Source of the DNA: a virus
Lineage: Duplodnaviria; Heunggongvirae; Uroviricota; Caudoviricetes
DNA: 17,300 nt
IMG/VR virus record: IMGVR_UViG_2541047802_000012
Coordinates: 1-17,300 of that record
Reading direction: 5' to 3' (one strand)
Of this stretch, positions 256-17,300 are shown piece after piece. Each line of letters starts with the position of its first letter. Position 1 is the stretch's first letter. The position numbers and the translations under genes are program-made. The notes under the pieces are model-generated. The model made no database searches, had not been told where the DNA came from, and saw nothing but the letters and a program-made list of their open reading frames with translations.

Positions 256-263
256 TCATTCAG

Positions 264-283: not shown

Positions 284-305
284 TGTTCTGACAGGTGAAA
301 GAATC

Positions 306-494
306 ATGATCCTGAAACAAGATCTGAAATGGTCACCGGACGGTATGCGTGTTGAGATTATTCGGGCCGGTGAGTATGAAGATAAAGAATTACCCGAACG
401 GGTACGCGAAATTGCCACTGCAGCTGGGATTGTCTCTGATAAGAGAACACCTGTTGCGCGGGGGGCTGATAAGTCTAAAAAACAGCATTCATAG
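306..494 (+). CDS. hypothetical small protein (62 aa) between capsid and connector genes
   Basis: ATG at 306 preceded by GGTGA about 6 nt upstream; ORF ends at TAG 492-494, 11 nt before the next gene's start; co-oriented with the operon. No recognisable family. Confidence 0.45.
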   Translation: MILKQDLKWSPDGMRVEIIRAGEYEDKELPERVREIATAAGIVSDKRTPVARGADKSKKQHS

Positions 495-505
495 AGGTTG
501 CCCAA

Positions 506-811: not shown

Positions 812-819
812 GAGGATTC

Positions 820-1158: not shown

Positions 1159-1604
1159 TGGATTTCAGTCTTGATTTTTCAGGTCTGGCGGATATTGCAC
1201 GGGATCTGGAGACGCTCAGCAGGGCAGAAAACAATAAGGTGCTGCGCGATGCCACCCGTGCCGGTGCTGAAGTTATGCGGGATGCAGTTGTTGAACGTGC
1301 GCCGGAGCGAACCGGGAAACTGAAGAAAAATGTGGTTGTTCTCACTCAGCGTTCAAAGCGTCGGGGGGAAATTATCTCGGGTGTCCACATTCGTGGACGG
1401 AACCTGCGAACCGGAAACAGTGATAACAGCATGAAAGCCAGCGATCCCCGAAATGCGTTTTACTGGCGCTTTGTGGAGCTGGGAACGATAAACATGCCCG
1501 CGCATCCGTTCATTCGCCCGGCTTTCGATACGACAGAGGAACTGGCAGCACAGATTGCCATACAGCGAATGAATCAGGCTATTGATGAGGTCTTAAGTAA
1601 ATGA
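1158..1604 (+). CDS. HK97 gp10-family neck / tail-completion protein
   Basis: ATG 1158 overlaps the upstream stop (TGATG). C-terminal motif FYWRFVELGTINMPAHPFIRPAFD matches the conserved signature of the HK97 gp10 family. The ORF track's 1155 start is a GTG one codon upstream. Confidence 0.7.
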   Translation: MDFSLDFSGLADIARDLETLSRAENNKVLRDATRAGAEVMRDAVVERAPERTGKLKKNVVVLTQRSKRRGEIISGVHIRGRNLRTGNSDNSMKASDPRNAFYWRFVELGTINMPAHPFIRPAFDTTEELAAQIAIQRMNQAIDEVLSK

Positions 1605-1945
1605 GAGAGACCACACTGTATTCCCTGCTGTCTCAACTGGCCGGAGGACAGGTTTATCCTTATGTGGTCCCGCTGACGGAGGGAAAGCCTGCGGTATCTC
1701 CGCCATGGCTGGTGTTTTCTGTGGTGTCTGACACGGCATCTGATGTGCTTGATGGTCAGGCTGAATCAAGAATTACCGTGCAGATCGATGTCTGGGCGAC
1801 AGTACCTGATGACGCAGATGATATCCGTGAGCAGGCGCTTGATGCGGTAAGGCAACTGGCACCCTCCGTTATTTCTAAAACGCAGGGTTATGATCCTGAT
1901 TCCCGTCTGAGCAGAGCCACGCTTGAATTTCAGGTAATAGCCTGA
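1601..1945 (+). CDS. tail terminator / tail completion protein (DUF3168-like)
   Basis: ATGA overlap with the preceding gene, 114 aa, located immediately before the major tail gene; sequence character is consistent with the DUF3168 family, but this is a memory-based assignment. Confidence 0.5.
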   Translation: MRETTLYSLLSQLAGGQVYPYVVPLTEGKPAVSPPWLVFSVVSDTASDVLDGQAESRITVQIDVWATVPDDADDIREQALDAVRQLAPSVISKTQGYDPDSRLSRATLEFQVIA

Positions 1946-1965
1946 GATCGTTAATGATTTTACCC

Positions 1966-1993
1966 ACCCGCCGCTGGCGGGTTTTTTTATTTT
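1966..1993 (+). terminator. intrinsic-terminator-like hairpin (CCCGCC-GCT-GGCGGG) followed by T7-A-T4, immediately upstream of the major tail gene
   Basis: Stem 1967-1972 / 1976-1981 with a 3-nt loop, then TTTTTTTATTTT at 1982-1993; read directly from the sequence. Confidence 0.55.
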
Positions 1994-2005
1994 CAGGAGA
2001 CGAGT

Positions 2006-2710
2006 ATGTCCTCTAATTTTGAACGTTCTCAGCAGACCAAAGTCATGATCTCGTCTGCACCGGTAACGGCAGAAACGCTGAGTTCTGCCAGTTTTCTTGA
2101 ACTGAGCTGTACGATTAAAGAGGTTCAGTTTACCGCCGGGCAGAAACAGGATATTGATGTCACCACGCTGTGTTCTGTTGAGCAGGAAAATATTAACGGT
2201 CTTGGTGCCGCGTCAGAGATTTCCATGTCAGGCAACTTTTATCTGAATGCTGCCCAGAACGCGTTGCGCAGTGCCTATGACAATGACACCACGTATGGCT
2301 TTAAAGTTATTTTTCCGTCAGGCAACGGATTTACCTTTATGGCAGAGGTGCGTCAGCATACCTGGTCTGCAGGAACCAATGGAGTTGTGGCTGCAACGTT
2401 TTCCCTGCGCCTGAAAGGTAAACCTGTACTGACGACAGAGCCACTGAAAGTGAAGGTCGATTTAAACAGCACGCTGCAGGTTTCTGCCGGAGCGAAACTC
2501 GAAATGGTGGTTGAGGCTGCCGGTGGTGTGCCGCCTTATTCTTATGTCTGGAAGAAAGGTGGTTCTCCTGTTTCCGGACAGACGGCGGCAACGTTCAGTA
2601 AGGCATCAGCAGCATCCGGTGATGCCGGTGCGTATACCTGCGAGATTTCTGATTCAGCAAGCCCGGTTAGCAAGGTGACCTCCACTTCCTGCACTGTTAC
2701 CGTCAGTTAA
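2006..2710 (+). CDS. major tail (tube) protein with C-terminal Ig-like domain
   Basis: AGGAGA 5 nt upstream of ATG 2006. The C-terminal ~90 aa (PPYSYVWKKGG...GDAGAYTCEISD...CTVTV) is a textbook Ig-like fold signature, as found appended to many siphovirus tail tube proteins. Position immediately before the G/GT chaperone pair. Confidence 0.75.
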   Translation: MSSNFERSQQTKVMISSAPVTAETLSSASFLELSCTIKEVQFTAGQKQDIDVTTLCSVEQENINGLGAASEISMSGNFYLNAAQNALRSAYDNDTTYGFKVIFPSGNGFTFMAEVRQHTWSAGTNGVVAATFSLRLKGKPVLTTEPLKVKVDLNSTLQVSAGAKLEMVVEAAGGVPPYSYVWKKGGSPVSGQTAATFSKASAASGDAGAYTCEISDSASPVSKVTSTSCTVTVS

Positions 2711-2724
2711 TGAGGATAGATGTG

Positions 2725-3096
2725 ATGACTAAAAATATCCGTAATCTGGCACTGGCAACGATGTCGGGGTTTCGCCATAAAACTGTTGATGTGCCTGAAT
2801 GGGAAGGGGCAACGGTTGTATTACGGGAACCTTCTGCAGAAGCCTGGTTGCGCTGGCAGGAGATCGTTAAAGCAAAAGATGATGAGACACCGTTATCCGT
2901 TGCGGAGCGCGCCCGCCGAAATCTGGAGGCAGATGTTGAACTGTTCATTGATGTTCTGTGTGATACCGGACTGCAACCTGTATTTTCAGAGGATGATCGT
3001 GAACAGGTGATTGCCGTGTATGGCCCGGTGCATGCGCGGCTTCTTCGGCAGTCTCTGGAACTGATCAGTGATGCCGGTGAGGTTAAAAAAAAGTAG
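2725..3096 (+). CDS. tail assembly chaperone G (short, zero-frame product)
   Basis: Located between the major tail and tape measure genes and ends in a slippery A8G run directly before its stop. GAGGA at 2712-2716 is well spaced for ATG 2725; the ORF track's 2710 start (TAATG overlap) lacks a Shine-Dalgarno but cannot be excluded. Confidence 0.7.
   Translation: MTKNIRNLALATMSGFRHKTVDVPEWEGATVVLREPSAEAWLRWQEIVKAKDDETPLSVAERARRNLEADVELFIDVLCDTGLQPVFSEDDREQVIAVYGPVHARLLRQSLELISDAGEVKKK
3087..3093 (+). other. -1 programmed ribosomal frameshift site A_AAA_AAG joining G to T
   Basis: The heptamer is in the zero frame of G (codons AAA 3088-3090, AAG 3091-3093), one codon before the TAG stop. The -1 frame from 3093 is open (GTA GCG CTT CCG GGG ATG...) and is the frame of ORF 3108-3398. 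A_AAA_AAG is the same slippery heptamer used in E. coli dnaX. Confidence 0.7.
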
Positions 3097-3398
3097 CGCT
3101 TCCGGGGATGCGTTTTCTGATGATGCTGGCGCTCAGGATGGGGCGCACATTGTCAGAGTTACGCCGGGAAATGTCCGCATCAGAAATCATGATGTGGGCA
3201 GAATTTGACAGGTTCAGCCCGCTGGGTGACGAGCGGGCTGATATCCGGGCTGCCCAGATAGTTTCTGCGGTTTACGGTGCGCAGGGTGTCAAAGTCCCAC
3301 TGAATGATGCGCTTCTTCAGTGGGAGAAGGAGCAGACAGAAGGCGTATCAGATCCATTTGCCGGACTGGAAAACGCGCTTTTAATAGTGTCTCAGTGA
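3093..3398 (+). CDS. T segment of the G-T frameshift fusion chaperone (expressed as 2725..3092 plus 3093..3398 after the -1 shift)
   Basis: -1 frame ORF with no independent Shine-Dalgarno. Motif EIMMWAEFDRFSPLGDERADIRAAQI resembles the T domain of lambda-type GT proteins. Conserved G/GT architecture upstream of the tape measure gene. Confidence 0.65.
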   Translation, partial: VALPGMRFLMMLALRMGRTLSELRREMSASEIMMWAEFDRFSPLGDERADIRAAQIVSAVYGAQGVKVPLNDALLQWEKEQTEGVSDPFAGLENALLIVSQ

Positions 3399-3407
3399 GT
3401 CAACATA

Positions 3408-3430
3408 ACCGCTTCGGCGGTTTTTTTTTC
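3408..3430 (+). terminator. intrinsic-terminator-like hairpin (ACCGC-TTCG-GCGGT) plus T9, immediately upstream of the tape measure gene
   Basis: 5-bp GC-rich stem with a TTCG tetraloop at 3408-3421, followed by nine T at 3421-3429; read directly. Confidence 0.55.
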
Positions 3431-3439
3431 GTCCGGAGA

Positions 3440-6400
3440 ATGAGTGTGGCGACATTACGTGAACTGATTATTAAAATCTCGGCAAATTCCCGGTCATTCC
3501 AGTCAGAGATCTCCCGGGCTTCGCGTATGGGGCAGGATTACTACCGTACCATGCAGAACGGAGGCCGGCAGTCCGCTGCTGCATCCCGTGAAATGCGGCG
3601 TGCACTGGCAGAAGTGACGGATCAGATAAATACAGCTAAATCTTCGGCACTGAATATGGCGGGGGCATTTGCCGGAGCTTTTGCTACCGGTCATCTTATT
3701 TCTCTCGCCGATGAGTGGAATTCAGTAAATGCCCGTCTGAAGCAGGCTTCACAGTCCAGTGATGATTTTCAGGTATCACAACGTGAATTAATGGCAATCA
3801 GCCAGAGAACGGGAACGGCGTTTTCTGATAACGCCAGCCTTTTTGCCCGCTCTGCAGCTTCCATGCGGGAGTATGGCTACAGTTCTGAGGAGGTACTGAA
3901 AGTCACCGAGGCGATCTCCACGGGCCTGAAATTATCCGGTGCCAGTACAGCAGAAGCCAGTTCGGTGATCACGCAGTTCAGTCAGGCACTGGCGCAGGGA
4001 GTGCTGCGCGGTGAAGAATTTAACTCTGTGAATGAGAACGGCGATCGTGTTATTCGTGCGCTGGCTGCGGGAATGGGTGTTACCCGTAAGGATCTGAAGG
4101 CCATGGCGGATAACGGAAAACTGACCGCCGATAAGGTTGTTCCTGCACTGATTAGTCAGCTTGGGGCGTTGCGTGATGAATATGCAGCAATGCCTGATAC
4201 TGTTTCATCCTCTGCAACCAAAGTTGAAAACGCCTTTATGGCCTGGGTTGGTGGTGCGAACGAGGCAAGCGGAGTGACAAAGACACTCACCGGGGTGTTG
4301 AATGGTGTTGCAGACAATATTGATACCGTGGCTGCTGCAGCTGGCGCACTGGTTGCCGTCGGGGTAGCCCGATATTTTGGCAATATGGCGTCGTCTGCTG
4401 GATCTGCAACTGCCGGATTAATTACTGCAGCCAGAAACGAAGTGGCTCTTGCTGAAGCGCAACTTCGGGGGACTCAGATAGCAACCGCCAGGGCGCGTGC
4501 GGCGGTTTATCGTGCGCAACAGGCGGTTGTTGCTGCTCGCGGTACCGAAAGGCAGGCCGCAGCAGAAGCGAAGCTGACAGCTGCCCAGGCGTCACTTACC
4601 CGTAATATTGCGGCCAGAACAGCGGCACAGACAACGCTGAATACTGTCACGTCAGTGGGGAGTCGTCTGTTAAGTGGTGCGCTGGGGTTGGTTGGTGGTG
4701 TGCCGGGACTCGTCATGCTGGGGGCGACGGCCTGGTACACGATGTATCAGAATCAGGAGCAGGCCAGAGAATCTGCACGCCAGTATGCCGCAACAATCGA
4801 CGAAATTCGCCAGAAAACGTCGGCAATGTCGCTTCCTGAAGCGTCAGATAATGAGGAAAAGACGCGGCAGGCACTTGATGAGCAAAACAGGTTAATTGAC
4901 GAGCAGAAAAGTAAGATTAAATCCTTACAGGAAAAAATTGCTGGCTATCAGTATGTGCTGGCAAACCCGGGCTGGACAACCGATAACGGTTTTATGATTA
5001 ACCACATGACGTCGGTAAAAACTGTCACAGAAGGGCTTGCAGAAGCAACAAATCAACTGGCAGTTGAACAGTCCCGTCTCACACAAATGCAGGGCAAAGC
5101 GCAATCCATTCAGGATGTGCTTGCCGGGTTGGAGGAGCGACGGGTGGCGTTGATCCGTCAACAGGCCGCTGAACAAAACAAAGCGTATCAGTCCCTGTTG
5201 ATCATGAATGGGCAGCATACCGAGTTTAATCGCCTTCTCGGGCTCGGTAATGAATTACTTCAGCAGCGACAGGGGCTGGTGAATGTACCGTTACGGCTAC
5301 CACAGGCAACCCTGGATGATAAACAGCAGACTGCACTGAATAACAGCGAGCGCGAACTGGCTCTGTCCCGCCTGAAGGGGGAGGCCCGTGAGCGTGCCCG
5401 CCTGGGTTATGCTGCGGATGATCTCGGCTTTGTGGGAGAGGCGTATCAGACAGCCAGACAGAATTATATCAATAACTCACTGGATGCCTGGCGAAATAAC
5501 CAGGCAAATAAACCCAAAGCGCATAAAAAGACCGAAGCGGAAAAAACAGAAGATATTTATAAACGGCTGATTAAACAGCAAAAAGAACAAATAGCACTGG
5601 CAGGGCAGAATACTGAACTGGCTAAGATGAAATATCAGGTCAGTCAGGGCGAATTATCAACCCTGTCAGAAGCGCAGAAAAAAACGCTTTTGCAGAATGC
5701 AGCACTCATCGACCAGAAAAAGATTCGTGAGCAGCTTGCTGCGTATGAGAGCAGTCTGGCGGACAGTAATGCCAGTGCCCGGGCATCTGACGAAGCGCAG
5801 TTGTTGGGATATGGTGAAGGCTCACGGATGCGTGAACGACTCCAGGAAATGTGGAGTATCCGGCAGGCGTTTGAGCAGAAAAATAACGAGCTGCTGAGAC
5901 AGTATCAGGCCGGAGAAATTGAAGAAGCCCTGTGGAAACAGGAGAAAGAACTGAATAAAAAATATCTGGAAGAGCGTCTCAGCGATCAGCAGGATTATTA
6001 TGCAAAGGCCGATGCTTTACGTAATAACTGGAATGCCGGACTCCAGGAGGGACTGACCAACTGGGCAGACAGTGCCACCGATTATGCTTCACAGGCGGCA
6101 GATGCTGTCGTTTCTACGATGGACGGGCTGGTATCAAATATTTCCGATGCACTGGCCGGGAATGTTGTGGACTGGAGGAACTGGGGGAGTTCAGTTCTCC
6201 GGGAAGTTTCAAAAATTCTGATGAATGCAGCCATTGTTAACGGACTGAAATCACTCTCCGGTGCCGGAGGGTGGCTTGGTACGGTCGGCGGATGGATTTC
6301 GGGGGCAGTGGCAAACGCAAAAGGTGGTGTTTACACATCGGCAAATCTGAGTGCTTACAGTAACACTATTGTGGATACACCGACGTATTTTGCTTTTGCG

Positions 6401-6673
6401 AAAGGTGCCGGGTTGATGGGCGAGGCCGGGCCTGAAGCAATCATGCCACTGACACGGGCAGCGGACGGCTCTCTTGGGGTCAGGGCCATTGGAAATGTGA
6501 ATGGTGGCGGTGGATTTGTTTATTCTCCCGTGTATCACATCAGCATTCAGAATCAAGGGAGCAATGGCGAGATAGATGCGCGCTCAGCCAGGGGACTGGT
6601 GGATCTGATCGACAGCAGGGTTGTGTCAATTATGCAGTCATCGCGTCGGGATGGAGGATTGTACAGTGCCTGA
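3440..6673 (+). CDS. tail tape measure protein (about 1077 aa)
   Basis: Very long Ala/Gln/Glu-rich helical ORF in the canonical position. The N-terminal ~250 aa matches the conserved tape-measure N-terminal domain pattern, and the C-terminal region (LRNNWNAGLQEGLTNWADSATD...RDGGLYSA) resembles the lambda H C-terminus as I recall it. Start set at ATG 3440 (GTG 3446 is an alternative) because the 3320 extension overlaps T and runs through the terminator hairpin. Confidence 0.85.
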   Translation: MSVATLRELIIKISANSRSFQSEISRASRMGQDYYRTMQNGGRQSAAASREMRRALAEVTDQINTAKSSALNMAGAFAGAFATGHLISLADEWNSVNARLKQASQSSDDFQVSQRELMAISQRTGTAFSDNASLFARSAASMREYGYSSEEVLKVTEAISTGLKLSGASTAEASSVITQFSQALAQGVLRGEEFNSVNENGDRVIRALAAGMGVTRKDLKAMADNGKLTADKVVPALISQLGALRDEYAAMPDTVSSSATKVENAFMAWVGGANEASGVTKTLTGVLNGVADNIDTVAAAAGALVAVGVARYFGNMASSAGSATAGLITAARNEVALAEAQLRGTQIATARARAAVYRAQQAVVAARGTERQAAAEAKLTAAQASLTRNIAARTAAQTTLNTVTSVGSRLLSGALGLVGGVPGLVMLGATAWYTMYQNQEQARESARQYAATIDEIRQKTSAMSLPEASDNEEKTRQALDEQNRLIDEQKSKIKSLQEKIAGYQYVLANPGWTTDNGFMINHMTSVKTVTEGLAEATNQLAVEQSRLTQMQGKAQSIQDVLAGLEERRVALIRQQAAEQNKAYQSLLIMNGQHTEFNRLLGLGNELLQQRQGLVNVPLRLPQATLDDKQQTALNNSERELALSRLKGEARERARLGYAADDLGFVGEAYQTARQNYINNSLDAWRNNQANKPKAHKKTEAEKTEDIYKRLIKQQKEQIALAGQNTELAKMKYQVSQGELSTLSEAQKKTLLQNAALIDQKKIREQLAAYESSLADSNASARASDEAQLLGYGEGSRMRERLQEMWSIRQAFEQKNNELLRQYQAGEIEEALWKQEKELNKKYLEERLSDQQDYYAKADALRNNWNAGLQEGLTNWADSATDYASQAADAVVSTMDGLVSNISDALAGNVVDWRNWGSSVLREVSKILMNAAIVNGLKSLSGAGGWLGTVGGWISGAVANAKGGVYTSANLSAYSNTIVDTPTYFAFAKGAGLMGEAGPEAIMPLTRAADGSLGVRAIGNVNGGGGFVYSPVYHISIQNQGSNGEIDARSARGLVDLIDSRVVSIMQSSRRDGGLYSA

Positions 6674-7007
6674 GCCTGAAGTTTTTAACTGGATCCCCCG
6701 AGAGGGGATGGAGACGACACGAAAGCCATCAGTTATTACGGTAAAGTTTGGTGACGGATATGAACAGCGACGGGCTGGTGGTCTGAATGCGGATCTGAAA
6801 ACGTTTAAACCGGTATTTCGTGTCACAGATGAATATTCCCGTGCCGCGCTGGACAGTTTTTTATCCCGTCATGCCGGGATTCGTGCTTTTTTGTGGCGTC
6901 CGCCAAAACACAACAGGACTGTCCGGGTTGTCTGCAGGGAGTGGAGCATTTCGGATAATGCCATGTATACCGATTTTAACTGTACCTTTGAAGAGGTCAC
7001 TCACTGA
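6666..7007 (+). CDS. M: minor tail protein M
   Basis: FGDGYEQRRAGGLNADLKTF and the C-terminal region align with lambda gpM as I recall it. GTG 6666 has GGAGGA 7 nt upstream and gives the same N-terminal length as lambda M; ATG 6651 is an alternative. Confidence 0.8.
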   Translation: MPEPEVFNWIPREGMETTRKPSVITVKFGDGYEQRRAGGLNADLKTFKPVFRVTDEYSRAALDSFLSRHAGIRAFLWRPPKHNRTVRVVCREWSISDNAMYTDFNCTFEEVTH

Positions 7008-7705
7008 TGCAGGATATACAGCAGGAAACACTCAATGAGTGCACTAAAACGGAGCAATCCGCGCTGGTCGTGCTCTGGGAAATTGATCTGACAGAGGTCG
7101 GCGGAGATCGTTATTTCTTCTGTAATGAGCAGAACGAAAAAGGTGAACCAGTCACCTGGCAGGGGCGGCAGTATCAGGCTTATCCCATTCAGGGAAGCGG
7201 ATTTGAGATGAACGGCAAAGGAGCCAGTGCAAGGCCAACGCTTAAAGTCTCTAATCTGTACGGCATGGTCACCGGGATGGCGGAAGACCTGCAGAGTCTG
7301 GTCGGCGGAACGGTGGTCAGGCGTAAGGTTTACGCCCGTTTTCTGGATACGGTGAACTTCGTCAACGGAAACAGCGACGCCGATCCGGAGCAGGAGGTGA
7401 TCAGCCGCTGGCGCATCGAGCAGTGCAGCGAACTGAGTGCGGTCAGTGCCTCCTTTGTGCTCTCCACACCGACGGAAACGGATGGTGCTGTTTTTCCGGG
7501 GCGCATCATGCTGGCCAACACCTGCACCTGGACCTATCGCGGTGATGAGTGCGGTTATCATGGTCCGGCGGTCGCGGATGAATATGACCAGCCGACGTCC
7601 GATATCACGAAGGATAAATGCAGCAAATGCCTGAGCGGCTGTAAGTTTCGCAATAACGTCGGCAACTTTGGCGGCTTCCTTTCCATTAACAAACTTTCGC
7701 AGTAA
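7007..7705 (+). CDS. L: minor tail protein L (tail tip, conserved Cys cluster)
   Basis: 232-aa product that is near-identical along its length to lambda gpL as I remember it (MQDI.QETLNECT...CSKCLSGCKFRNNVGNFGGFLSINKLSQ). ATGA overlap with M. Confidence 0.9.
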   Translation: MQDIQQETLNECTKTEQSALVVLWEIDLTEVGGDRYFFCNEQNEKGEPVTWQGRQYQAYPIQGSGFEMNGKGASARPTLKVSNLYGMVTGMAEDLQSLVGGTVVRRKVYARFLDTVNFVNGNSDADPEQEVISRWRIEQCSELSAVSASFVLSTPTETDGAVFPGRIMLANTCTWTYRGDECGYHGPAVADEYDQPTSDITKDKCSKCLSGCKFRNNVGNFGGFLSINKLSQ

Positions 7706-7709
7706 TCCC

Positions 7710-8453
7710 ATGACACAGACAGAATCAGCGATTCTGGCGCACGCCCGGCGATGTGCGCCAGCGGAGTCGTGCGGCTTCGTGGTGAGAGCGCCGGAGGGGG
7801 AAAGATATTTTCCCTGCGTGAATATTTCCGGTGAGCCGGAGGATTATTTCCGGATGGCTCCGGAGGACTGGCTGCAGGCAGAGATGCAGGGTGAGATTGT
7901 GGCGCTGGTCCACAGCCACCCCGGTGGTCTGCCCTGGCTGAGTGAGGCTGACCGGCGGCTGCAGGTGCAGAGTGATTTGCCGTGGTGGCTGGTCTGCCGG
8001 GGGGCGATTCACAAGTTCCGCTGTGTGCCGCATCTCACCGGGCGGCGCTTTGAGCACGGGGTGACGGACTGTTACACGCTGTTCCGGGATGCTTATCATC
8101 TGGCGGGGATTGAGATGCCGGATTTTCATCGCGGGGATGACTGGTGGCGTAACGGTCAGAATCTCTATCTGGATAATCTGGAGGCCACAGGGCTGTATCA
8201 GGTGGCGTTGTCATCAGCACAACCGGGCGATGTGCTGCTGTGCTGTTTTGGTTCATCGGTGCCGAATCATGCCGCCATTTACTGCGGCGACGGTGAGCTG
8301 CTGCACCATATTCCTGAACAACTGAGTAAACGAGAGAGGTATACCGACAAATGGCAGCGACGCACACACTCCCTCTGGCGTCACCGGGCATGGCACGCAT
8401 CTGCCTTTACGGGGATTTACAACGATTTGGCCGCCGCATCGACCTTCGAGTGA
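7710..8453 (+). CDS. K: tail assembly protein K (N-terminal JAMM/MPN metalloprotease-like domain, C-terminal NlpC/P60-like domain)
   Basis: Starts MTQTESAILAHARRCAPAESCGFVV as in lambda K-region sequence. HSHPGGLPWLSEAD fits the JAMM motif HxHx7Sx2D, and TDCYTL with a downstream HAAIY fits the NlpC/P60 Cys and His positions. ATG 7710 is 5 nt after the L stop. Confidence 0.85.
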   Translation: MTQTESAILAHARRCAPAESCGFVVRAPEGERYFPCVNISGEPEDYFRMAPEDWLQAEMQGEIVALVHSHPGGLPWLSEADRRLQVQSDLPWWLVCRGAIHKFRCVPHLTGRRFEHGVTDCYTLFRDAYHLAGIEMPDFHRGDDWWRNGQNLYLDNLEATGLYQVALSSAQPGDVLLCCFGSSVPNHAAIYCGDGELLHHIPEQLSKRERYTDKWQRRTHSLWRHRAWHASAFTGIYNDLAAASTFE

Positions 8454-8998
8454 AAACGGGGTCTGAAGCCATCCGGGCGCTGGCCATGCAGATCCCGGCG
8501 TTTCGTCAGAAACTGAGCGACGGCTGGTACCAGGTACGCATTGCCGGGCGTGATGCAGGTGAAACCGAATTGTCTGCCCGTCTTAATGAGCCGCTGGCAA
8601 ATGGTGCCGTGATCCACATCGTGCCGCGTCTGGCGGGAGCTAAAAGTGGCGGTGTGTTTCAGGTGGTGCTGGGGGCGGCGCTGATTGCGGTGGCATGGTG
8701 GAACCCTGTGGGCTGGCTGGGTGCCGCGGCTGTATCGGGCATGTATGCGGCAGGGGCCAGTATGATCCTGGGCGGAGTGGCGCAGATGCTGGCACCGAAA
8801 GCCAGGACGCCCACGGCAGCAAGTACAGATAACGGCAAACAGAACACCTATTTCTCCTCACTGGATAACATGGTTGCCCAGGGCAATGTTCTGCCCGTTC
8901 TGTACGGTGAAATGCGCGTGGGGTCGCGGGTGGTCTCTCAGGAGATCAGCACGGCAGACGAAGGGGATGGTGGTCAGGTTGTAGTGATTGGTCGCTGA
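8351..8998 (+). CDS. I: tail assembly protein I
   Basis: MAATHTLPLASPGMARICLYGDLQRFGRRIDLRVKTG... and the C-terminal NGKQNTYFSSLDNMVAQGNVLPVLYGEMRVGSRVVSQEISTADEGDGGQVVVIGR match lambda gpI as I recall it. Begins 103 nt inside K in another frame, as in lambda. Confidence 0.85.
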   Translation: MAATHTLPLASPGMARICLYGDLQRFGRRIDLRVKTGSEAIRALAMQIPAFRQKLSDGWYQVRIAGRDAGETELSARLNEPLANGAVIHIVPRLAGAKSGGVFQVVLGAALIAVAWWNPVGWLGAAAVSGMYAAGASMILGGVAQMLAPKARTPTAASTDNGKQNTYFSSLDNMVAQGNVLPVLYGEMRVGSRVVSQEISTADEGDGGQVVVIGR

Positions 8999-9016
8999 TG
9001 AAAAACGTTTTATGTG

Positions 9017-9040
9017 AAACCGCCTCCGGGCGGTTTTGTC
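9017..9040 (+). terminator. hairpin (AAACCGCC-TCCG-GGCGGTTT) with a short interrupted T-tract between I and J; weak or partial terminator, or an mRNA structure
   Basis: Inverted repeat 9018-9024 / 9029-9035 read directly; the downstream TTGTCGTTT is only moderately U-rich. Confidence 0.3.
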
Positions 9041-9058
9041 GTTTATGGAGCGTTAGGA

Positions 9059-12000
9059 ATGGGTAAAGGCAGCAGTAAGGGGCATACTCCGCGCGAAGCG
9101 AAGGACAACCTGAAATCCACGCAGTTGCTGAGCGTGATAGACGCCATCAGTGAAGGGCCGATTGAAGGTCCGGTGGACGGATTAAAAAGTGTGCTGCTGA
9201 ACAGTACGCCAGTGCTGGACAGTGAGGGGAATACCAATATCTCCGGTGTCACGGTGGTTTTCCGGGCAGGTGAGCAGGAGCAGACACCGCCGGAGGGATT
9301 TGAATCCTCCGGCTCCGAGACGGTGCTGGGTACGGAAGTGAAGTACGACACGCCGATTACCCGGACCATCACGTCTGCAAACATCGACCGTCTGCGCTTT
9401 ACCTTCGGTGTGCAGGCACTGGTGGAAACCACCTCAAAGGGGGACCGGAATCCGTCGGAAGTCCGCCTGCTGGTTCAGATACAGCGTAATGGTGGCTGGG
9501 TGACGGAAAAAGACATCACCATTAAAGGCAAAACCACCTCACAGTATCTGGCATCGGTGGTGGTGGGTAACCTGCCGCCGCGCCCGTTCAATATCCGGAT
9601 GCGCAGGATGACGCCGGACAGCACCACAGACCAGCTGCAGAACAAAACGCTCTGGTCGTCATACACCGAAATCATCGATGTGAAACAGTGCTACCCGAAC
9701 ACGGCACTGGTCGGCGTACAGGTGGATTCGGAGCAGTTCGGCAGCCAGCAGGTGAGCCGTAATTATCATCTGCGCGGGCGTATTCTGCAGGTGCCGTCGA
9801 ACTATAACCCGCAGACGCGGCAATACAGCGGTATCTGGGACGGAACGTTTAAGCCGGCATACAGCAACAACATGGCCTGGTGTCTGTGGGATATGCTGAC
9901 CCACCCGCGCTACGGCATGGGGAAACGTCTTGGTGCGGCGGATGTGGACAAATGGGCGCTGTATGTCATCGGCCAGTACTGCGACCAGTCGGTGCCGGAC
10001 GGCTTTGGCGGCACGGAGCCGCGCATTACCTGTAATGCGTACCTGACCACACAGCGTAAGGCGTGGGATGTGCTCAGTGATTTCTGCTCGGCGATGCGCT
10101 GTATGCCGGTATGGAACGGGCAGACGCTGACGTTCGTGCAGGACCGACCATCAGATAAGGTGTGGACCTATAACCGCAGTAATGTGGTGATGCCGGATGA
10201 TGGCGCGCCGTTCCGCTACAGCTTCAGCGCCCTGAAAGACCGCCATAATGCCGTTGAGGTGAACTGGATTGACCCGGATAACGGCTGGGAGACGGCAACA
10301 GAGCTTGTGGAGGACACGCAGGCCATTGCCCGTTACGGTCGTAACGTCACGAAGATGGATGCTTTTGGCTGTACCAGCCGGGGGCAGGCACACCGCGCCG
10401 GGCTGTGGCTGATTAAAACAGAACTGCTGGAAACGCAGACCGTGGACTTCAGCGTGGGTGCCGAAGGGCTTCGCCATGTGCCGGGTGATGTTATTGAAAT
10501 CTGCGATGATGACTATGCGGGGATCAGCATCGGCGGGCGCGTGCTGGCTGTGAACAGCCAGACCCGGACGCTGACGCTCGACCGTGAAATCACGCTGCCA
10601 TCCTCCGGTACCACGCTGATAAGCCTGGTTGACGGTCAGGGTAATCCGGTCAGCGTGGAGGTCCAGTCCGTCACCGACGGCGTGAAGGTGAAAGTGAGCC
10701 GTGTTCCTGACGGCGTTGCTGAATACAGCGTGTGGGGGCTGAAGCTGCCGACGCTGCGCCAGCGCCTGTTCCGCTGCGTGAGTATCCGTGAGAACGACGA
10801 CGGCACGTATGCCATCACCGCCGTGCAGCATGTACCGGAAAAAGAGGCCATCGTGGATAACGGGGCGCACTTTGACGGCGACCAGAGCGGCACGGTGAAT
10901 GGTGTCACGCCGCCAGCGGTGCAGCACCTGACCGCCGAAGTCACCGCAGACAGCGGGGAATATCAGGTGCTGGCGCGCTGGGACACGCCGAAGGTGGTGA
11001 AGGGCGTGAGTTTCCTGCTTCGCCTGACCGTGGCAGCGGATGACGGCAGTGAGCTGCTGGTCAGCACGGCCCGGACGGCGGAAACCACATACCGCTTCAG
11101 GCAACTGGCGCTGGGGAACTACAGGCTGACAGTCCGGGCGGTAAATGCGTGGGGGCAGCAGGGCGATCCGGCGTCGGTATCGTTCCGGATTGCCGCACCG
11201 GCAGCACCGTCGAGGATTAAGCTGACGCCGGGCTATTTTCAGATAACCGCCACGCCGCATCTTGCGGTTTATGATCCGACGGTACAGTTTGAGTTCTGGT
11301 TCTCGGAAAAGCGGATTGCGGATATCAGGCAGGTTGAAACCACAGCCCGCTATCTTGGCACGGCGCTGTACTGGATAGCTGCCAGTATCAATATCAAGCC
11401 GGGCCATGATTATTATTTTTACGTTCGCAGTGTGAACACAGTCGGCAAATCGGCATTCATGGAGGCTGTCGGTCGGGCGAGCGATGATGCGGAAGGTTAC
11501 CTGGATTTTTTCAAAGGAGAAATCGGGAAAACACATCTGGCCCAGGAGCTGTGGACGCAGATTGATAACGGTCAGCTTGCGCCGGACCTGGCTGAAATCA
11601 GGACGTCCATTACGAATGTCAGCAATGAAATCACGCAGACCGTCAATAAAAAACTGGAAAATCAGAGTGCGGCAATCCAGCAGATACAGAAAGTTCAGGT
11701 TGATACAAATAATAACCTGAACAGCATGTGGGCTGTGAAGCTGCAGCAGATGCAGGACGGACGCCTTTATATCGCGGGTATTGGTGCCGGTATTGAGAAC
11801 ACCCCCGACGGTATGCAGAGTCAGGTGCTGCTGGCGGCAGACAGGATTGCGATGATTAATCCTGCGAATGGCAACACAAAGCCGATGTTTGTTGGGCAGG
11901 GCGATCAGATATTCATGAACGAAGTGTTCCTGAAATATCTGACGGCTCCCACCATTACCAGCGGCGGTAATCCTCCGGCATTTTCCCTGACACCGGACGG

Positions 12001-12538
12001 GCGGCTGACGGCGAAAAATGCCGATATCAGCGGTAACGTGAATGCGAACTCCGGGACGCTCAACAACGTCACGATTAACGAGAACTGCCGGGTTCTGGGA
12101 AAACTGTCCGCGAACCAGATTGAAGGCGATCTCGTTAAAACAGTGGGCAAAGCTTTCCCCCGGGACTCCCGTGCACCGGAACGGTGGCCATCAGGGACCA
12201 TTACCGTCAGGATTTATGACGATCAGCCGTTTGACCGGCAGATTGTTATTCCGGCGGTGGCATTCAGCGGCGCTAAACATGAGAAAGAGCATACTGATAT
12301 TTACTCCTCATGCCGTCTGATAGTGCGGAAAAACGGTGCTGAAATTTATAACCGTACCGCGCTGGATAATACGCTGATTTACAGTGGCGTTATTGATATG
12401 CCTGCCGGTCACGGTCACATGACACTGGAGTTTTCGGTGTCAGCATGGCTGGTAAATAACTGGTATCCCACAGCAAGTATCAGCGATTTGCTGGTTGTGG
12501 TGATGAAGAAAGCCACTGCAGGCATCACGATTAGCTGA
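9059..12538 (+). CDS. J: tail tip central fibre / host specificity protein J, with divergent C-terminal receptor-binding region
   Basis: From [54 protein letters not shown] onward it follows lambda gpJ closely for roughly 800 residues, including the FN3-like region ([27 protein letters not shown]). The last ~330 aa diverge. The ORF track's 9014 start is a GTG extension running through the hairpin. Confidence 0.9.
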
Positions 12539-12556
12539 ATTTTATAACCCAGATAC

Positions 12557-12584
12557 GGGCGCCAGAAATGGCGCCTTTTTTATT
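12557..12584 (+). terminator. intrinsic terminator after J (palindromic stem GGCGCC-AGAAAT-GGCGCC then TTTTTTATT)
   Basis: Perfect 6-bp GC stem at 12558-12563 / 12570-12575 followed by a T-run at 12576-12584. Confidence 0.6.
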
Positions 12585-12605
12585 GCAGAAAAGCGAGAGG
12601 TAATT

Positions 12606-13205
12606 ATGCGTACATTATGTGCTGTTATTTTGTCCGCAGTAGTCTGGCAGGTCGCCGCTGCTACGCCAGCGAGTGCAGCAGAACATCAGTCCACGCTGAG
12701 CGCGGGGTATCTCCATGCCTCGACGAACGTTCCCGGTAGTGATGATCTGAACGGGATTAACGTGAAATACCGTTATGAGTTTACGGACATGCTGGGTGTT
12801 GTGACGTCATTCAGTTATGCCAATGCCAAAGATGAGCAAAAAACGCATTACAGCGATACCCGCTGGCATGAAGATTCAGTGCGTAACCGCTGGTTCAGCG
12901 TGATGGCGGGGCCGTCTGTGCGCGTGAATGAATGGTTCAGCGCGTATGCGATGGCGGGTATGGCTTACAGCCGTGTTTCGACTTTCTCCGGAGATTATAT
13001 CCGCGTAACTGACAACAAGGGGAAAACGCACGATGTGCTGACCGGAAGTGATGACGGTCGCCACAGCAACACGTCTCTGGCGTGGGGGGCTGGCGTGCAG
13101 TTTAACCCGACCGAATCCGTGGCCATTGACCTTGCTTATGAAGGTTCCGGCAGTGGCGACTGGCGCACTGACGGTTTCATCGTGGGTGTCGGTTATAAAT
13201 TCTGA
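12606..13205 (+). CDS. lom: Lom-like outer membrane beta-barrel protein (Ail/Lom/PagC family), with signal peptide
   Basis: N-terminal signal peptide MRTLCAVILSAVVWQVAAATPASA. The C-terminal IDLAYEGSGSGDWRTDGFIVGVGYKF is identical to the lambda Lom C-terminus as I recall it, and GINVKYRYE matches the Ail/Lom family. GAGAGG Shine-Dalgarno upstream of ATG 12606. Confidence 0.85.
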   Translation: MRTLCAVILSAVVWQVAAATPASAAEHQSTLSAGYLHASTNVPGSDDLNGINVKYRYEFTDMLGVVTSFSYANAKDEQKTHYSDTRWHEDSVRNRWFSVMAGPSVRVNEWFSAYAMAGMAYSRVSTFSGDYIRVTDNKGKTHDVLTGSDDGRHSNTSLAWGAGVQFNPTESVAIDLAYEGSGSGDWRTDGFIVGVGYKF

Positions 13206-13231
13206 TTAGCCAGGTAACACAGTGTTATGAC

Positions 13232-13258
13232 AGCCCGCCGGTTCAGGCGGGCTTTTTT
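13232..13258 (+). terminator. intrinsic terminator after lom (AGCCCGCC-GGTTCA-GGCGGGCT then T6)
   Basis: 8-bp stem at 13232-13239 / 13246-13253 followed by TTTTTT; read directly. Confidence 0.65.
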
Positions 13259-13269
13259 GTGGAGTGGAT

Positions 13270-15648
13270 ATGGCAGCAGTAAAAATCTCAGGTGTGCTGA
13301 AAGATGGTGCGGGAAAACCAATACAGAACTGCACTATTCAACTGAAGGCAAAGCGTAACAGCACCACGGTACTGGTGAACACGGTGGCCTCTGAAAATCC
13401 GGATGAAGCCGGACGTTACAGCATGGATGTTGAGTATGGCCAGTACAGCGTCACCCTGCTGGTTGAAGGTTTTCCGCCTTCACATGCCGGGACCATTACC
13501 GTCTATGAAGGTTCCAGACCAGGTACGCTGAATGATTTTCTCGGTGCCATGACGGAAGATGATGTCATGCCGGAGGCATTGCGTCGTTTTGAGGCAATGG
13601 TGGAAGAAGTGGCACGCAACGCCGAAGCCGCCTCTCAGAGCGCAGCGGCGGCAAAGAAATCCGAAACTGCAGCGGCATCATCAAAGAACGCGGCGAAAAC
13701 CTCAGAAACGAATGCAGCTAATAGTGCACAGGCGGCAGCGACCTCAAAGACTGCATCGGCAAACTACGCGACAGCAGCCAAAAAATCAGAAACCAACGCG
13801 AAAAATAGCGAGACAGCCGCAAAGACGAGCGAAACCAACGCAAAGTCCAGCCAGACGGCAGCGAAGACCAGCGAAACGAATGCTAAAGCCAGTGAAACTG
13901 CAGCAAAAAACAGCCAGGTTTCAGCAGCCCAAAGCGAGAGTGCCGCTGCCGGTTCTGCGACTTCAGCTGCCGGATCAGCAACTGCTGCGGCTAACAGCCA
14001 GAAAGCTGCGAAGACGAGTGAAACTAACGCAAAGTCCAGCCAGACGGCAGCGAAGACCAGCGAAACGAATGCCAAAGCCAGTGAAACTGCGGCGAAAAGC
14101 AGTCAGGATGCAGCGGCCCAAAGCGAGAGTGCCGCAGCCAGTTCTGCAAGCGCGGCGGCTGCTTCTGCTACTGCATCAGCTAACAGTCAAAAAGCAGCAA
14201 AAACCAGTGAAACTAACGCAAAGGCGAGCGAAACAAAAGCAGCAGCCAGCGAGACAGAAGCAACGTCAGCCGCAACAAGAGCAGAGAATGCAGCCCGGAT
14301 TGCAGAAGATGCCGCTGATCCTGCTTCTGTCCCTCCGCTTCCTGATATCTGGCTACCCTTGAATGATTCTCTGGAAGCGATAACAGGGTATGCGCCGGGG
14401 TATAAAACAATAACCATCGGCAGCGATGAAATCACTGTGCCAGTTAATGGCATATGCCAATTTAGCCGGGCTTCATCTGCAACGTATATTGATAAGTCCG
14501 GGCATATTACCGTGGCAGGTAATAACGTTCCTCGTTTTGAAAAATATGGTTTGCTGATAGAGAATCAGCGAACAAACATGTTCGTAAATAGTTTTAATCC
14601 TGATGCGTGGAATAAAAGCGGTGGTATATCTGTAACATCATCAACAGATGAATTTGAGTTTAAATATGGACGTTTCACGGTAGGAAGCGATATAGCAGGA
14701 ACGACAACAGGGAGAAATATATGCACAGTTGCTGGTAACAAAGGCATAGATGTGACTGGCGATGATCAGTACAGTAAAGGTCCGTATGTTACCGCGTCGT
14801 TCAGGGTAAGAAGTGATCTCAATGTTCGCGCACGTATCCGTTTTGAACGGTATAACTCGGAAGGATACACCTTCCTTTGCGACGCCTATTTGTCATTACA
14901 GACCCATGAACTACAAATTACTGGTGGCAATGCCCAGCTATTAACAGCAAACTTTGAAATCGACCCTGGTAGTGGATGGATATATTTTCAGGCAACACTG
15001 AAATGTCTGCCAGAATGGGGAATGGTTGGTACGCAGCTGCAAATTGCAGCCGACAGAGCTGTGGGAGCTTTTGCAACAGGTGACTGGATAGAAGTAACCA
15101 CCCCGCAATTCGAGTATGGTGCTTGTGCAACTTCCTTCATCATAACGACAACAGAGCCAGCGACTCGTGCATCAGATTTATGTAAATTTCCGCTGATGAA
15201 AAATATGTATACCATGCCTTTTACGTTCATGGTGGAAGTCCATAAAAACTGGTTTATTTCTCATAATGCTGCACCGCGTGTCATTGATTCAGAAAATCAC
15301 CAGTCCGGAGGCCCATTTATTATGGGGTTTGGTTCTTCTGGAACTATCAGTCAGGACGGTTATTCGTATTGCGATATAGGCGGGGCTAACCGACGTGTAT
15401 ATGAATCATGCGGAGTAAGGGATCTCGTTATGGGATTCAGGGTTAAGGCTGACGGCATGACATGCTCATTTGCAAATAAGCATATAAGCGCTGAAACAAA
15501 AACAGTATGGAAATATATTCGTGAAGCAGCCGTGATTCGTATCGGGGGGCAAACGACGACAGGATTACGACACCTTAATGGTCATATAAAAAACCTCCGT
15601 TTCTGGAACAGAGCATTGTCAGATACGCAGCTTAAGGAATACGTATAA
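13270..15648 (+). CDS. stf: side tail fibre protein, Stf-like: lambda-like N-terminal attachment domain, Ala/Ser/Thr-rich repeat shaft, lectin-like (ConA/LamG-type) C-terminal tip
   Basis: MAAVKISGVLKDGAGKPIQNCTIQLKAKRNSTTV...YSMDVEYGQYSV...GFPPSHAGTITVYE matches the lambda Stf N-terminus as I recall it, with GGAG 6 nt upstream of ATG 13270. The C-terminus ends ...GHIKNLRFWNRALSDTQLKEYV, which fits the characteristic terminal motif of LamG-like jelly-roll domains (G.IDEVRIYNRALS..EI). Confidence 0.85.
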   Translation: MAAVKISGVLKDGAGKPIQNCTIQLKAKRNSTTVLVNTVASENPDEAGRYSMDVEYGQYSVTLLVEGFPPSHAGTITVYEGSRPGTLNDFLGAMTEDDVMPEALRRFEAMVEEVARNAEAASQSAAAAKKSETAAASSKNAAKTSETNAANSAQAAATSKTASANYATAAKKSETNAKNSETAAKTSETNAKSSQTAAKTSETNAKASETAAKNSQVSAAQSESAAAGSATSAAGSATAAANSQKAAKTSETNAKSSQTAAKTSETNAKASETAAKSSQDAAAQSESAAASSASAAAASATASANSQKAAKTSETNAKASETKAAASETEATSAATRAENAARIAEDAADPASVPPLPDIWLPLNDSLEAITGYAPGYKTITIGSDEITVPVNGICQFSRASSATYIDKSGHITVAGNNVPRFEKYGLLIENQRTNMFVNSFNPDAWNKSGGISVTSSTDEFEFKYGRFTVGSDIAGTTTGRNICTVAGNKGIDVTGDDQYSKGPYVTASFRVRSDLNVRARIRFERYNSEGYTFLCDAYLSLQTHELQITGGNAQLLTANFEIDPGSGWIYFQATLKCLPEWGMVGTQLQIAADRAVGAFATGDWIEVTTPQFEYGACATSFIITTTEPATRASDLCKFPLMKNMYTMPFTFMVEVHKNWFISHNAAPRVIDSENHQSGGPFIMGFGSSGTISQDGYSYCDIGGANRRVYESCGVRDLVMGFRVKADGMTCSFANKHISAETKTVWKYIREAAVIRIGGQTTTGLRHLNGHIKNLRFWNRALSDTQLKEYV
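13650..14260 (+). repeat. in-frame tandem direct repeats inside stf (about 189-bp unit, two near-identical copies plus partial copies; encodes reiterated K-T/S-SETNAK-A/S-S-E/Q-T-AAK motifs)
   Basis: The string gcaaagtccagccagacggcagcgaagaccagcgaaacgaatgc recurs near 13840 and near 14029 (offset 189 bp) with flanking similarity; the protein shows the corresponding repeated motif. Confidence 0.7.
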
Positions 15649-15917
15649 TGCGAGATATAACATTACGATTCGATAACAGAGAACAGTTTAACGCAATTGT
15701 ATATGACAGTGGCCTGTTCAGTCTTGAAGAAGAAAACGGGGTTCTTGTTGATGTTATTGGCTGCATTATCGATTACGAGGAGCCAGAAAACGAAAGATGT
15801 ACAGGCATTGATCGCGGTGGTTTTTTCGTAAACATGAGGATTGTTGATAGCAGTAAAAACATATCTTCTTTAATGCCTTTCATTACGACAGATCAGCATG
15901 TAAGGACATGGGCTTAA
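15648..15917 (+). CDS. hypothetical 89-aa acidic protein, first gene of a low-GC cassette
   Basis: ATG 15648 overlaps the stf stop (TAATG), with AAGGAA upstream. Visibly AT-rich relative to the tail genes. No family recognised. Confidence 0.5.
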   Translation: MRDITLRFDNREQFNAIVYDSGLFSLEEENGVLVDVIGCIIDYEEPENERCTGIDRGGFFVNMRIVDSSKNISSLMPFITTDQHVRTWA

Positions 15918-15929
15918 TGGAGTAAGACA

Positions 15930-16970
15930 ATGGTTACAAAAACAGTAATTCCTGATGACATCAAAACGCTAAAATCCGATGTTAGTAAACTAAAAACTGA
16001 TCAAGGAAGCTATGCAACAAAATCATATGTAGACAATAAAACAACATGGAATAGTTATTGCAATGTAATCTATGATCAAAAGGCATTGCCGACCACTGGA
16101 ACTATATTTAGCGGTAAGATTCACTTGTCAAATAAGACAGGAGAAACCGAAAACGCTTATAGTGAGATGTACACCAGAAAAAATATTGACGGTACAAAAG
16201 ATACAATGACAAGGATTGTCACACACAATGGAACAAAAGGTATCTTTTGGGATTTTAGCGATCTTTACGGCGGAACATTAATTTTTCCAGGCAGTGATGG
16301 TTACCTTAAGATGGGGAACTGTCTCATGTCGTATGGTGTGCGGGGAAGTAACGCGCTTATTAAGTTTGACTGCACAGACACATTACAAATCAAATATGCC
16401 AATCATGGGTCAACCATGACATTAAACACACAGGGAACCGCTTATGCTGGTGTTACTGCTCAATTGTGGGGCAACTCCAGCCGTCCTGTTGTTTATGAAG
16501 TCGGTGTTGATGGTGGCGCTTATATGTTCTATGCGCAGAAAAATACCGATAACACCTATATGTTAAGCGTTAATGGTGCATGTCATGCCACCGCATTTAA
16601 CCAGCATTCCGACCGGGATCTGAAAGACAACATTCAGGTGATCGATAATGCAACCGACCGCATCCGTAAAATGAACGGCTATACATACACGCTTAAAGAA
16701 AACGGTATGCCCTATGCTGGTGTCATTGCACAGGAAGCTCTGGAAGCAATCCCAGAAGTTGTAGGTTCCGCAATGAAATATCAGGACGGTGCAAGCGGAT
16801 CGGAAGGTGAAGAAGGTGAACGTTATTACACAGTAGATTATTCTGGTGTTACTGGCTTGCTTGTTCAGGTAGCCAGAGAGTCAGACGACAGAATAACAGC
16901 ACTGGAAGAAGAAAACGCAGAATTAAGACAAAGATTATCTGCAATTGAGGCGGCGCTTGCGTCTAAATAA
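15930..16970 (+). CDS. tail-fibre-like protein with C-terminal intramolecular chaperone / autoproteolysis domain (peptidase S74-type)
   Basis: GGAG 7 nt upstream of ATG 15930. The C-terminal ~120 aa (HSDRDLKDNIQVID...YTYTLKENG...AGVIAQEALEAIPEVV...YTVDYSGVTGLLVQ...ALEEENAELRQRL) matches the conserved S74 chaperone-of-endosialidase pattern, including the Ser-x4-Lys dyad spacing (Ser codon 16608-16610, Lys codon 16623-16625). Confidence 0.7.
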   Translation: MVTKTVIPDDIKTLKSDVSKLKTDQGSYATKSYVDNKTTWNSYCNVIYDQKALPTTGTIFSGKIHLSNKTGETENAYSEMYTRKNIDGTKDTMTRIVTHNGTKGIFWDFSDLYGGTLIFPGSDGYLKMGNCLMSYGVRGSNALIKFDCTDTLQIKYANHGSTMTLNTQGTAYAGVTAQLWGNSSRPVVYEVGVDGGAYMFYAQKNTDNTYMLSVNGACHATAFNQHSDRDLKDNIQVIDNATDRIRKMNGYTYTLKENGMPYAGVIAQEALEAIPEVVGSAMKYQDGASGSEGEEGERYYTVDYSGVTGLLVQVARESDDRITALEEENAELRQRLSAIEAALASK

Positions 16971-16976
16971 TATCAA

Positions 16977-16996
16977 GGGGCCGAGCGCCCCGTTTT
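16977..16996 (+). terminator. terminator-like hairpin (GGGGC-CGAGC-GCCCC then G-TTTT-ATT) after the S74-domain gene
   Basis: 5-bp all-GC stem at 16977-16981 / 16987-16991 followed by a T-tract; read directly. Confidence 0.45.
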
Positions 16997-17012
16997 ATTG
17001 GGTAGGATGAAA

Positions 17013-17300
17013 ATGGATATAACACCTTTCCTTCATGCGCTTTGTGCTGTGGCTGCGCAGGTACTGGTTGGTTTTTTTACCGGGAACTGGGCTTACGGGG
17101 CGATAGCCGGTTGTACATTCTTCATTGCGCGGGAACACACCCAGGCAGAATATCGCTGGATTGAAATGTTCGGGCATGGCAAGCGGATTAACATGCCATG
17201 GTGGGGCGGTTTTGATCCGCGCGCGTGGGATGTGGCAAGCCTGATGGATTTTGCTGTGCCGGTGGTGGCGTGTCTGCTGATCTGGATGTTGATCCGTTAA
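17013..17300 (+). CDS. hypothetical small integral membrane protein (about 96 aa, three predicted hydrophobic helices)
   Basis: AGGA 6 nt upstream of ATG 17013 (the ORF track's TTG 16998 and ATG 17007 are alternatives). Three hydrophobic stretches (FLHALCAVAAQVLVGFF, WAYGAIAGCTFFIA, FAVPVVACLLIWMLI). Stop TAA at 17298-17300, the last bases of the window. Confidence 0.5.
   Translation: MDITPFLHALCAVAAQVLVGFFTGNWAYGAIAGCTFFIAREHTQAEYRWIEMFGHGKRINMPWWGGFDPRAWDVASLMDFAVPVVACLLIWMLIR

Follow-up and report, generated by a model that had tools for sequence, protein, structure and literature searches.

The 17,300-nucleotide (nt) stretch analyzed here (the window; positions 1 to 17,300 of the IMG/VR virus record IMGVR_UViG_2541047802_000012) is the tail-tip region of a lambda-like prophage, and it contains a side fiber ORF (open reading frame) resembling lambda stf at 13264-15648 on the plus strand (794 codons from a GTG start, 792 from the ATG at 13270). 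We propose, with a probability of about 0.6, that this gene encodes the proximal component of a side tail fiber made of two parts, in which a three-gene cassette of low guanine-plus-cytosine (GC) content has been grafted onto an Stf shaft. An earlier annotation made from the sequence alone (the original prediction) had placed the C-terminal end of the protein, which we divide into the domains D1 and D2, at the tip of the fiber. The data do not bear this placement out: a separate distal fiber gene with an S74 chaperone follows, the homologous protein of phage IrisVonRoten has been modeled as a proximal fiber (PMC11990801), and D1-D2 probably does not form the fiber tip. All features of the fiber locus described below are encoded on the plus strand.

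The first part of the protein is that of a lambda-type Stf. An N-terminal attachment domain (13270..13665) matches PF08400 over residues 5-134 (numbered from the GTG start) with an E value of 5e-67, and is followed by an Ala/Ser/Thr-rich shaft (13666..14334) recognized by its tandem repeats and by BLASTP to the lambda Stf shaft. The ORF is 61% identical to lambda orf-401 over residues 5-275 (271 aa) and near-identical over the first ~120, while BLASTP detected no similarity to lambda Stf past residue ~275. The lambda Stf-like N-terminus, previously put at ~110 aa, is thus real but longer than was thought, reaching residue 275 within the shaft. At the DNA level, the shaft repeats recur every 21, 42, and 189 nt between 13789 and 14284. 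Other genomes encode versions of 784/785 aa; the protein encoded here exceeds these by 7 aa, or one 21-nt unit, a difference from which we conclude that shaft length varies by repeat slippage. The PF08400 domain, the Ala/Ser/Thr shaft, and the position of the gene after J and lom are all shared with Stf of lambda (Ur-lambda). The C-terminal half sets the two apart: in lambda it is a gp37-like receptor-binding end that needs the downstream-encoded Tfa (PF02413), whereas here D1-D2 begins at residue ~358 and there is no Tfa.

Base composition changes where the shaft gives way to this end. GC is 0.540 at 13264-14349 versus 0.437 at 14350-15648 (0.467 versus 0.374 at third codon positions), and the fall occurs where the conserved module begins with PLPDIWLPLNDSL, at residue 358 (nt 14335). 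DNA similarity to phages ev207, PhiR49_1, and IdasGreatGrand ends at nt ~14231-14235, within the last shaft repeats. Because the GC drop meets the module start and the phage breakpoints fall in the last shaft repeats, we interpret the composition change as a recombination junction. A low-GC C-terminal part of ~440 aa and a composition change at the junction between the repeats and the end had both been predicted, and both were borne out by the GC profile, the part measuring 437 aa from residue 358. The low-GC block runs on to nt 16970 across three genes, with GC values of 0.437, 0.389, and 0.415, and is flanked by GC of 0.54 before and 0.53 after. The original prediction was silent on this continuation, as it was on an 89-aa ORF overlapping the stop codon of the fiber gene.

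The 437-aa end begins with PLPDIWLPLNDSL and the conserved N-terminal strands FSRASSATYIDKSG...PRFE (14335..14532), a segment delimited by family conservation and the GC drop and modeled with lower confidence in the monomer described below. Next comes D1, a variable jelly-roll similar to the GTA head-spike fiber and CBM_4_9 (14533..15177, residues ~424-638), in which the motif FEKYGLLIENQRTNMFVNSFNPDAW lies at residues 425-449 (nt 14536-14610). Residues 431-636 fit the NCBIfam model NF048003 (phage head spike fiber domain, GTA_spike_fiber), which scores 47.9 bits with the full protein and 51 bits with the C-terminal fragment, both above the curated cut-off of 36. PF02018 (CBM_4_9) exceeds its gathering score within the D1 copies of eight distant relatives, and the sole PDB sequence match is the RcGTA head-spike fiber Rcc01080 (E = 1.4e-3). 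The carbohydrate-binding jelly-roll predicted upstream of the C-terminal motif is therefore supported by the NF048003 score of D1 and by the CBM_4_9 scores of its relatives. A weak Beta_helix match in the Pfam scan (E = 0.083) was dismissed, the model being all beta-sandwich.

D2 (15178..15648, residues ~639-794) resembles LamG_3 and CBM40, and its C-terminal end is the motif NLRFWNRALSDTQLKEY at residues 777-793 (nt 15592-15642), which had been called LamG/ConA-like. A scan of the whole protein against Pfam returned no LamG match at an E value of 1 or below; when the last 182 aa were scanned alone, PF13385 (Laminin_G_3) matched exactly at this motif (E = 8e-4, 20 bits), the match covering only profile positions 112-150. 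That the motif is what it was said to be is also indicated by the relatives, since PF13385 was found in 26 of 51 phmmer relatives at E ≤ 0.01, the best at 1e-41. When these last 182 residues served as the query of an exhaustive phmmer search, 152 cluster representatives were retrieved, among them many giant proteins matched repeatedly at the C-terminal motif. A D2 profile built from 19 diverse segments matched CBM40 structures in the PDB (4c1w, E = 1.5e-5; 2v73, 5e-5; 6er2-4, 7e-5), which are the sialic-acid-binding modules of NanA, NanJ, and the Ruminococcus gnavus (R. gnavus) trans-sialidase.

A first AlphaFold2 (AF2) run with 39 sequences, ~50% identical, gave a predicted local distance difference test score (pLDDT) of 55, an unfolded D2, and Foldseek matches that were not significant, and was superseded. 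The second run used a 70-sequence alignment that included metagenomic relatives ~20% identical, with whole proteins aligned and the coverage of query columns checked; its mean pLDDT was 82, with D1 above 90 and D2 at 65-86. The best structural match to this model is Pa193 gp46 (PDB 9B45), and the E217 baseplate wedge (8ENV) also matches; both are 16-17% identical. Further matches are the PAPP-A LamG domain (13.8), PTX3 (13.1), and the NanA CBM40 (12.6), followed at 10-12 by CRP, SAP, laminin LG, neurexin LNS, and CBM4. Foldseek agrees, with the Pa193 and E217 baseplate chains matched over 332-350 columns and CRP at an E value of 6e-4. The predicted fold of the C-terminal end is of the LamG/pentraxin type, and according to the model this end is composed of two carbohydrate-binding-type beta-sandwiches. 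No resemblance to a gp37-type, Tfa-dependent tip fold appeared among the structural matches; LamG/CBM-like sandwiches were found instead, so the lectin-type reading withstood the comparison that could have overturned it.

Within the E. coli family, conservation is concentrated at the two extremities of the module. Pairwise identity is 0.59 in the first 15-residue block of the module start and 0.70-0.75 in the next two, 0.70-0.90 over the N-terminal strands, and up to 0.84 at the end of D2, while variation is greatest in the D1 core (0.32-0.48). Beyond the near-identical lineage of the window, D1-D2 relatives are 31-53% identical. The module is joined to N-termini of the lambda type (PF08400) and of the P2/Mu type (PF03406 and PF12571), and it also terminates the lateral fibers of T1-like, T5-like, Dhillonvirus, and rV5-like phages, which confirms that the fiber end has been exchanged in modular fashion, as had been supposed. 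Metagenomic relatives (P0268-P0486) consist, by a local hidden Markov model (HMM), of one to four tandem D1 copies with one D2 at the C-terminus, and a few types instead string together two complete D1-D2 modules. As judged from sequence, this multiplication points to an ancient and widely used lectin-array architecture outside the enterobacterial phages.

The second gene of the low-GC block encodes an acidic protein of 89 aa (15648..15917; phrog_1361), the start codon of which overlaps the stop codon of the fiber gene in a TAATG. The ORF has no Pfam, NCBIfam, or meaningful PDB match, no ORF downstream of the fiber matches PF02413, and the small-ORF family has no profile similarity to lambda Tfa (hhalign probability 0.1). 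Homologues 30-33% identical occupy the same overlapping position behind D1-D2 in Tritos, mar004NP2, and IrisVonRoten (T5-like), and homologues of the same identity lie behind D1-D2 in KarlBarth (Dhillonvirus), phage 21, and CarlMeissner (rV5-like). All 47 of the 47 loci that hold the small ORF have a gene ending in D1-D2 directly before it, and the overlap is 1 or 4 nt. The two also covary: ends that are 98-99% identical go with ORFs that are 97-100% identical, and ends at 36-51% with ORFs at 30-37%. Since this covariation is accompanied by three phage 21-type loci that keep the D1-D2 end and the small ORF and have no distal fiber, we conclude that the small ORF is tied to the D1-D2 end and not to the distal fiber. 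Its product is a candidate new fiber assembly factor, joint, or connector, unrelated to Tfa. The absence of a tfa homologue had been taken to mean that the end folds independently of Tfa; the absence stands, but to conclude that folding needs no chaperone is unsafe, because a translationally coupled small ORF accompanies D1-D2 and covaries with it.

The third gene, which begins 12 bases after the 89-aa ORF, encodes a 346-aa distal fiber (15930..16970; phrog_4563) with a C-terminal S74 chaperone domain (PF13884, residues 227-278, E = 5e-14) and the N-terminal peptide MVTKTVIPDDIKTLK. These first ~16 residues are shared by otherwise unrelated downstream fibers of 227-589 aa in lambdoid, T5-like, and Dhillonvirus loci, and the N-terminal consensus of all distal fibers is M[VAT]T[KSV]T.IP.DI..LK. 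Most loci contain, after the small ORF, a distal fiber that has this conserved N-terminal anchor and lacks a virion-attachment domain of its own. Distal fibers assort independently of the D1-D2 end. The same 99%-identical end is paired with fibers of 227 and 234 aa that are alike only at their N-termini, as well as with related fibers of 294 aa (68% identical to the 346-aa fiber) and 363 aa (92%); conversely, a 346-aa distal fiber of 82-90% identity is paired with D1-D2 ends that are just 36-49% identical.

The gene order at 13270-16970, a D1-D2 fiber, an overlapping ~90-aa ORF, and an M-x-T-x-T-x-IP-x-DI fiber with S74, is that of the two-part fiber of IrisVonRoten (Bas32). In the 2025 BASEL paper by Humolli et al., Gp22 of this phage is described as a proximal fiber whose C-terminal domain is galectin-like and may act as a further receptor-binding domain (RBD), and AlphaFold-Multimer modeling of the locus attaches a T-shaped distal fiber, Gp24, to Gp22 (PMC11990801). 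The 437-aa end of our fiber is 50% identical to Gp22 (P0296) over the full D1-D2 span, a homologous 92-aa ORF (bas32_0023) overlaps the stop codon there, and the distal fiber has the same N-terminal peptide and S74 chaperone. The differences are that Gp22 has a T5-type anchor and not the PF08400 anchor of lambda Stf, and that Gp24 is a T-shaped dual-RBD protein of 574 aa, to which the 346-aa fiber is related only in the first ~30 aa and the chaperone.

Branched fibers of comparable logic were established genetically for LtfA and LtfB of DT57C, where an amber mutant was shown to lose both proteins (Golomidova 2016, PMC4728585). In DT57C and DT571/2, the first fiber carries the second, which lacks a virion anchor of its own, and the two may bind different O-antigens. 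LtfA of DT57C, however, has its own S74 chaperone at the end instead of D1-D2, the docking site of LtfB is a phiEco32 gp14-like region, and a small-ORF partner has not been described for DT57C or DT571/2. More generally, T5-like and related siphophages use their lateral fibers to bind O-antigen (PMC8594841; PMC4728585), a primary receptor that is dispensable (PMC8594841). D1 has a relative in Rcc01080 (NF048003; PDB 6TB9), the RcGTA head-spike fiber that mediates attachment to capsule polysaccharide (PMC7296036). The two are homologous by sequence, but Rcc01080 is attached to the capsid vertices by an N-terminal Leu-Gly repeat, is a single subunit of 325 aa, and has no D2; because only residues 2-10 are resolved in 6TB9, it has no experimental fold. 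The glycan receptor that had been predicted for D1-D2 is a reasonable inference.

We therefore envisage a fiber in which the Stf N-terminal domain and the repeat shaft would provide attachment to the tail tip, and in which recombination in the last shaft repeats would have swapped a Tfa-dependent end for a horizontally acquired cassette of three genes: the D1-D2 end (437 aa), the translationally coupled 89-aa acidic protein, and the short distal fiber. The trimeric shaft would end in three D1-D2 lobes, and the 89-aa protein may fold or cap them or form the joint. The distal fiber, presumably trimerized by its own S74 intramolecular chaperone, would plug in by its conserved N-terminal peptide, as suggested by the conservation of that peptide, by synteny, and by the AlphaFold-Multimer model of IrisVonRoten. 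The distal fiber, and probably also the variable D1, would make reversible contact with a surface polysaccharide, O-antigen or capsule, that serves as primary receptor, after which J would engage the terminal receptor.

Several points weigh against this two-part arrangement or against a lectin role in it. The AF2 model is that of a monomer, with a confidence for D2 of just 65-86. The fiber sequence by itself falls below the gathering score of PF13385 (20 versus 27.6 bits). The fold fits a purely structural role equally well, because Pa193 gp46, which of all solved structures comes closest, is not a lectin but a wedge by which the tail fiber is anchored to the baseplate (PMC11456595). Both it and the E217 wedge belong to another assembly context, as subunits of a myophage baseplate triplex. 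The site at which the distal fiber attaches to the fiber protein is inferred from the model of a homologue and from synteny and covariation. The phage 21-type loci without a distal fiber indicate that the D1-D2 end can work alone. Finally, our literature search found no binding, adsorption, or structural experiment on the D1-D2 family, the distant RcGTA fiber excepted; a 2026 receptor-prediction preprint yielded no receptor data on the module, and a paper on the Gifsy-1 Stf provided no domain information usable for D1-D2.

It is unlikely, in our judgment, that D1-D2 is the terminal, self-folding end of a single-protein fiber that binds lipopolysaccharide (LPS) or capsule while the downstream genes are unrelated to it, which is how the original prediction saw the protein. 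The lectin-type folds, the hypervariable D1 core, the absence of a Tfa homologue, and the phage 21-type loci would all be accommodated by such an arrangement. It leaves unexplained, however, why the small ORF is coupled to D1-D2 in 47 of 47 loci and covaries with it, why most loci go on to a distal fiber that has an anchoring peptide but lacks a virion-attachment domain of its own, and why the low-GC block is common to all three genes, and it conflicts with the published model of the homologue, which puts the distal fiber on the proximal protein (PMC11990801).

We consider it improbable that D1-D2 and the small protein form a pure structural adaptor, a socket with no receptor role that leaves host specificity to the distal fiber and J only. 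Such an adaptor would be in keeping with the wedge Pa193 gp46 as the best structural match, with the many alternative distal fibers carried by one D1-D2 end, and with the conservation of D2 and the N-terminal strands. A pure adaptor would not be expected to vary most in its D1 core, as this family does, and the CBM_4_9 signatures in D1 relatives, the implication of the RcGTA homologue in capsule binding, the retention of D1-D2 in the phage 21 type despite the lack of a distal fiber, and the metagenomic relatives with up to four D1 copies, like lectin arrays, also speak for a receptor role. An enzymatic module, that is, a ConA-like glycoside hydrolase or lyase (GH16 or alginate-lyase type) that degrades surface polysaccharide, is very improbable and was rejected: the Pfam and NCBIfam scans found no hydrolase family above threshold, the top matches are noncatalytic lectins and CBMs, and no catalytic motif is evident among the conserved columns.

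Returning to the two-part fiber, it is tempting to generalize from the pairing patterns, although we do so only tentatively and with some doubt. D1-D2 and its ~90-aa partner might constitute a universal socket for distal fibers that start with M-[VAT]-T-x-T-x-IP-x-DI-x-x-LK, common to lambda-like, T1-like, T5-like, and Dhillonvirus siphophages and rV5-like myophages, with D1 serving as an independent second receptor site of lectin type and the small protein representing a new class of assembly factor or joint protein in fibers, with no relationship to Tfa, gp38, or gp57.

The remainder of the window holds other tail genes of the prophage. The tape-measure gene (3320-6673) is followed by M, L, K, and I, then by J (9014-12538), and an Ail/Lom gene (12606-13205; PF06316, E = 5e-123) directly precedes the fiber ORF. 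By megablast, the 3.7-kb segment 13264-17000 is present at full length and 98% identity in 75 complete E. coli genomes, with partial matches in 4,796 of 5,426 genomes. Among isolated phages, PhiR11_1 matches the segment at full length and PhiR47_1 and PhiR55_1 match its first ~73%, at 94-97% identity; the fiber gene itself is present at 94-99% identity in these three plaque-forming phages. A literature search found no publication on the PhiR (ECOR) phages. The fiber protein matches phrog_1419 end to end and is grouped at 90% identity with others in a cluster (P0278) that comprises 830 database sequences and is annotated as "prophage tail fiber N-terminal domain-containing protein."

An ORF at 16998-17300 on the plus strand, running past the end of the window, belongs to phrog_1443 (97 aa). 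The phage 21 member of this family is annotated as a membrane protein with two transmembrane domains and lies directly 3' of the small ORF; the phrog_1443 ORF may be a moron or exclusion gene that closes the fiber cassette. In NZ_CP119011.1, a 98%-identical prophage, the cassette is closely followed, in a part past where the window ends, by the 3' remnant of a tfa pseudogene and by a recombinase gene (9041-9839), which look like vestiges of a displaced stf-tfa arrangement. Two long antisense ORFs in the ORF list, at 10151-11536 on the minus strand (461 aa, inside J) and at 7001-7711 on the minus strand (236 aa, opposite L), are probably codon-bias by-products in GC-rich genes.

The module family and its architecture are already known from the curated NCBIfam model, from near-identical genomes and phages, and from the 2025 BASEL paper. 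For the window itself, the main outcome is a corrected annotation, in which the gene encodes the proximal fiber of a three-gene cassette and not a stand-alone receptor-binding end. Side and lateral fibers set the first step of host recognition and are swapped when phages are retargeted. The D1-D2 end is common in E. coli phages and is usually accompanied by a second, interchangeable fiber, so that the combination of a lectin-type end, a small partner gene, and distal fibers accepted through a short peptide would offer a working rule by which the host range of lambdoid prophages and of T1-like and T5-like phages could be interpreted and engineered.

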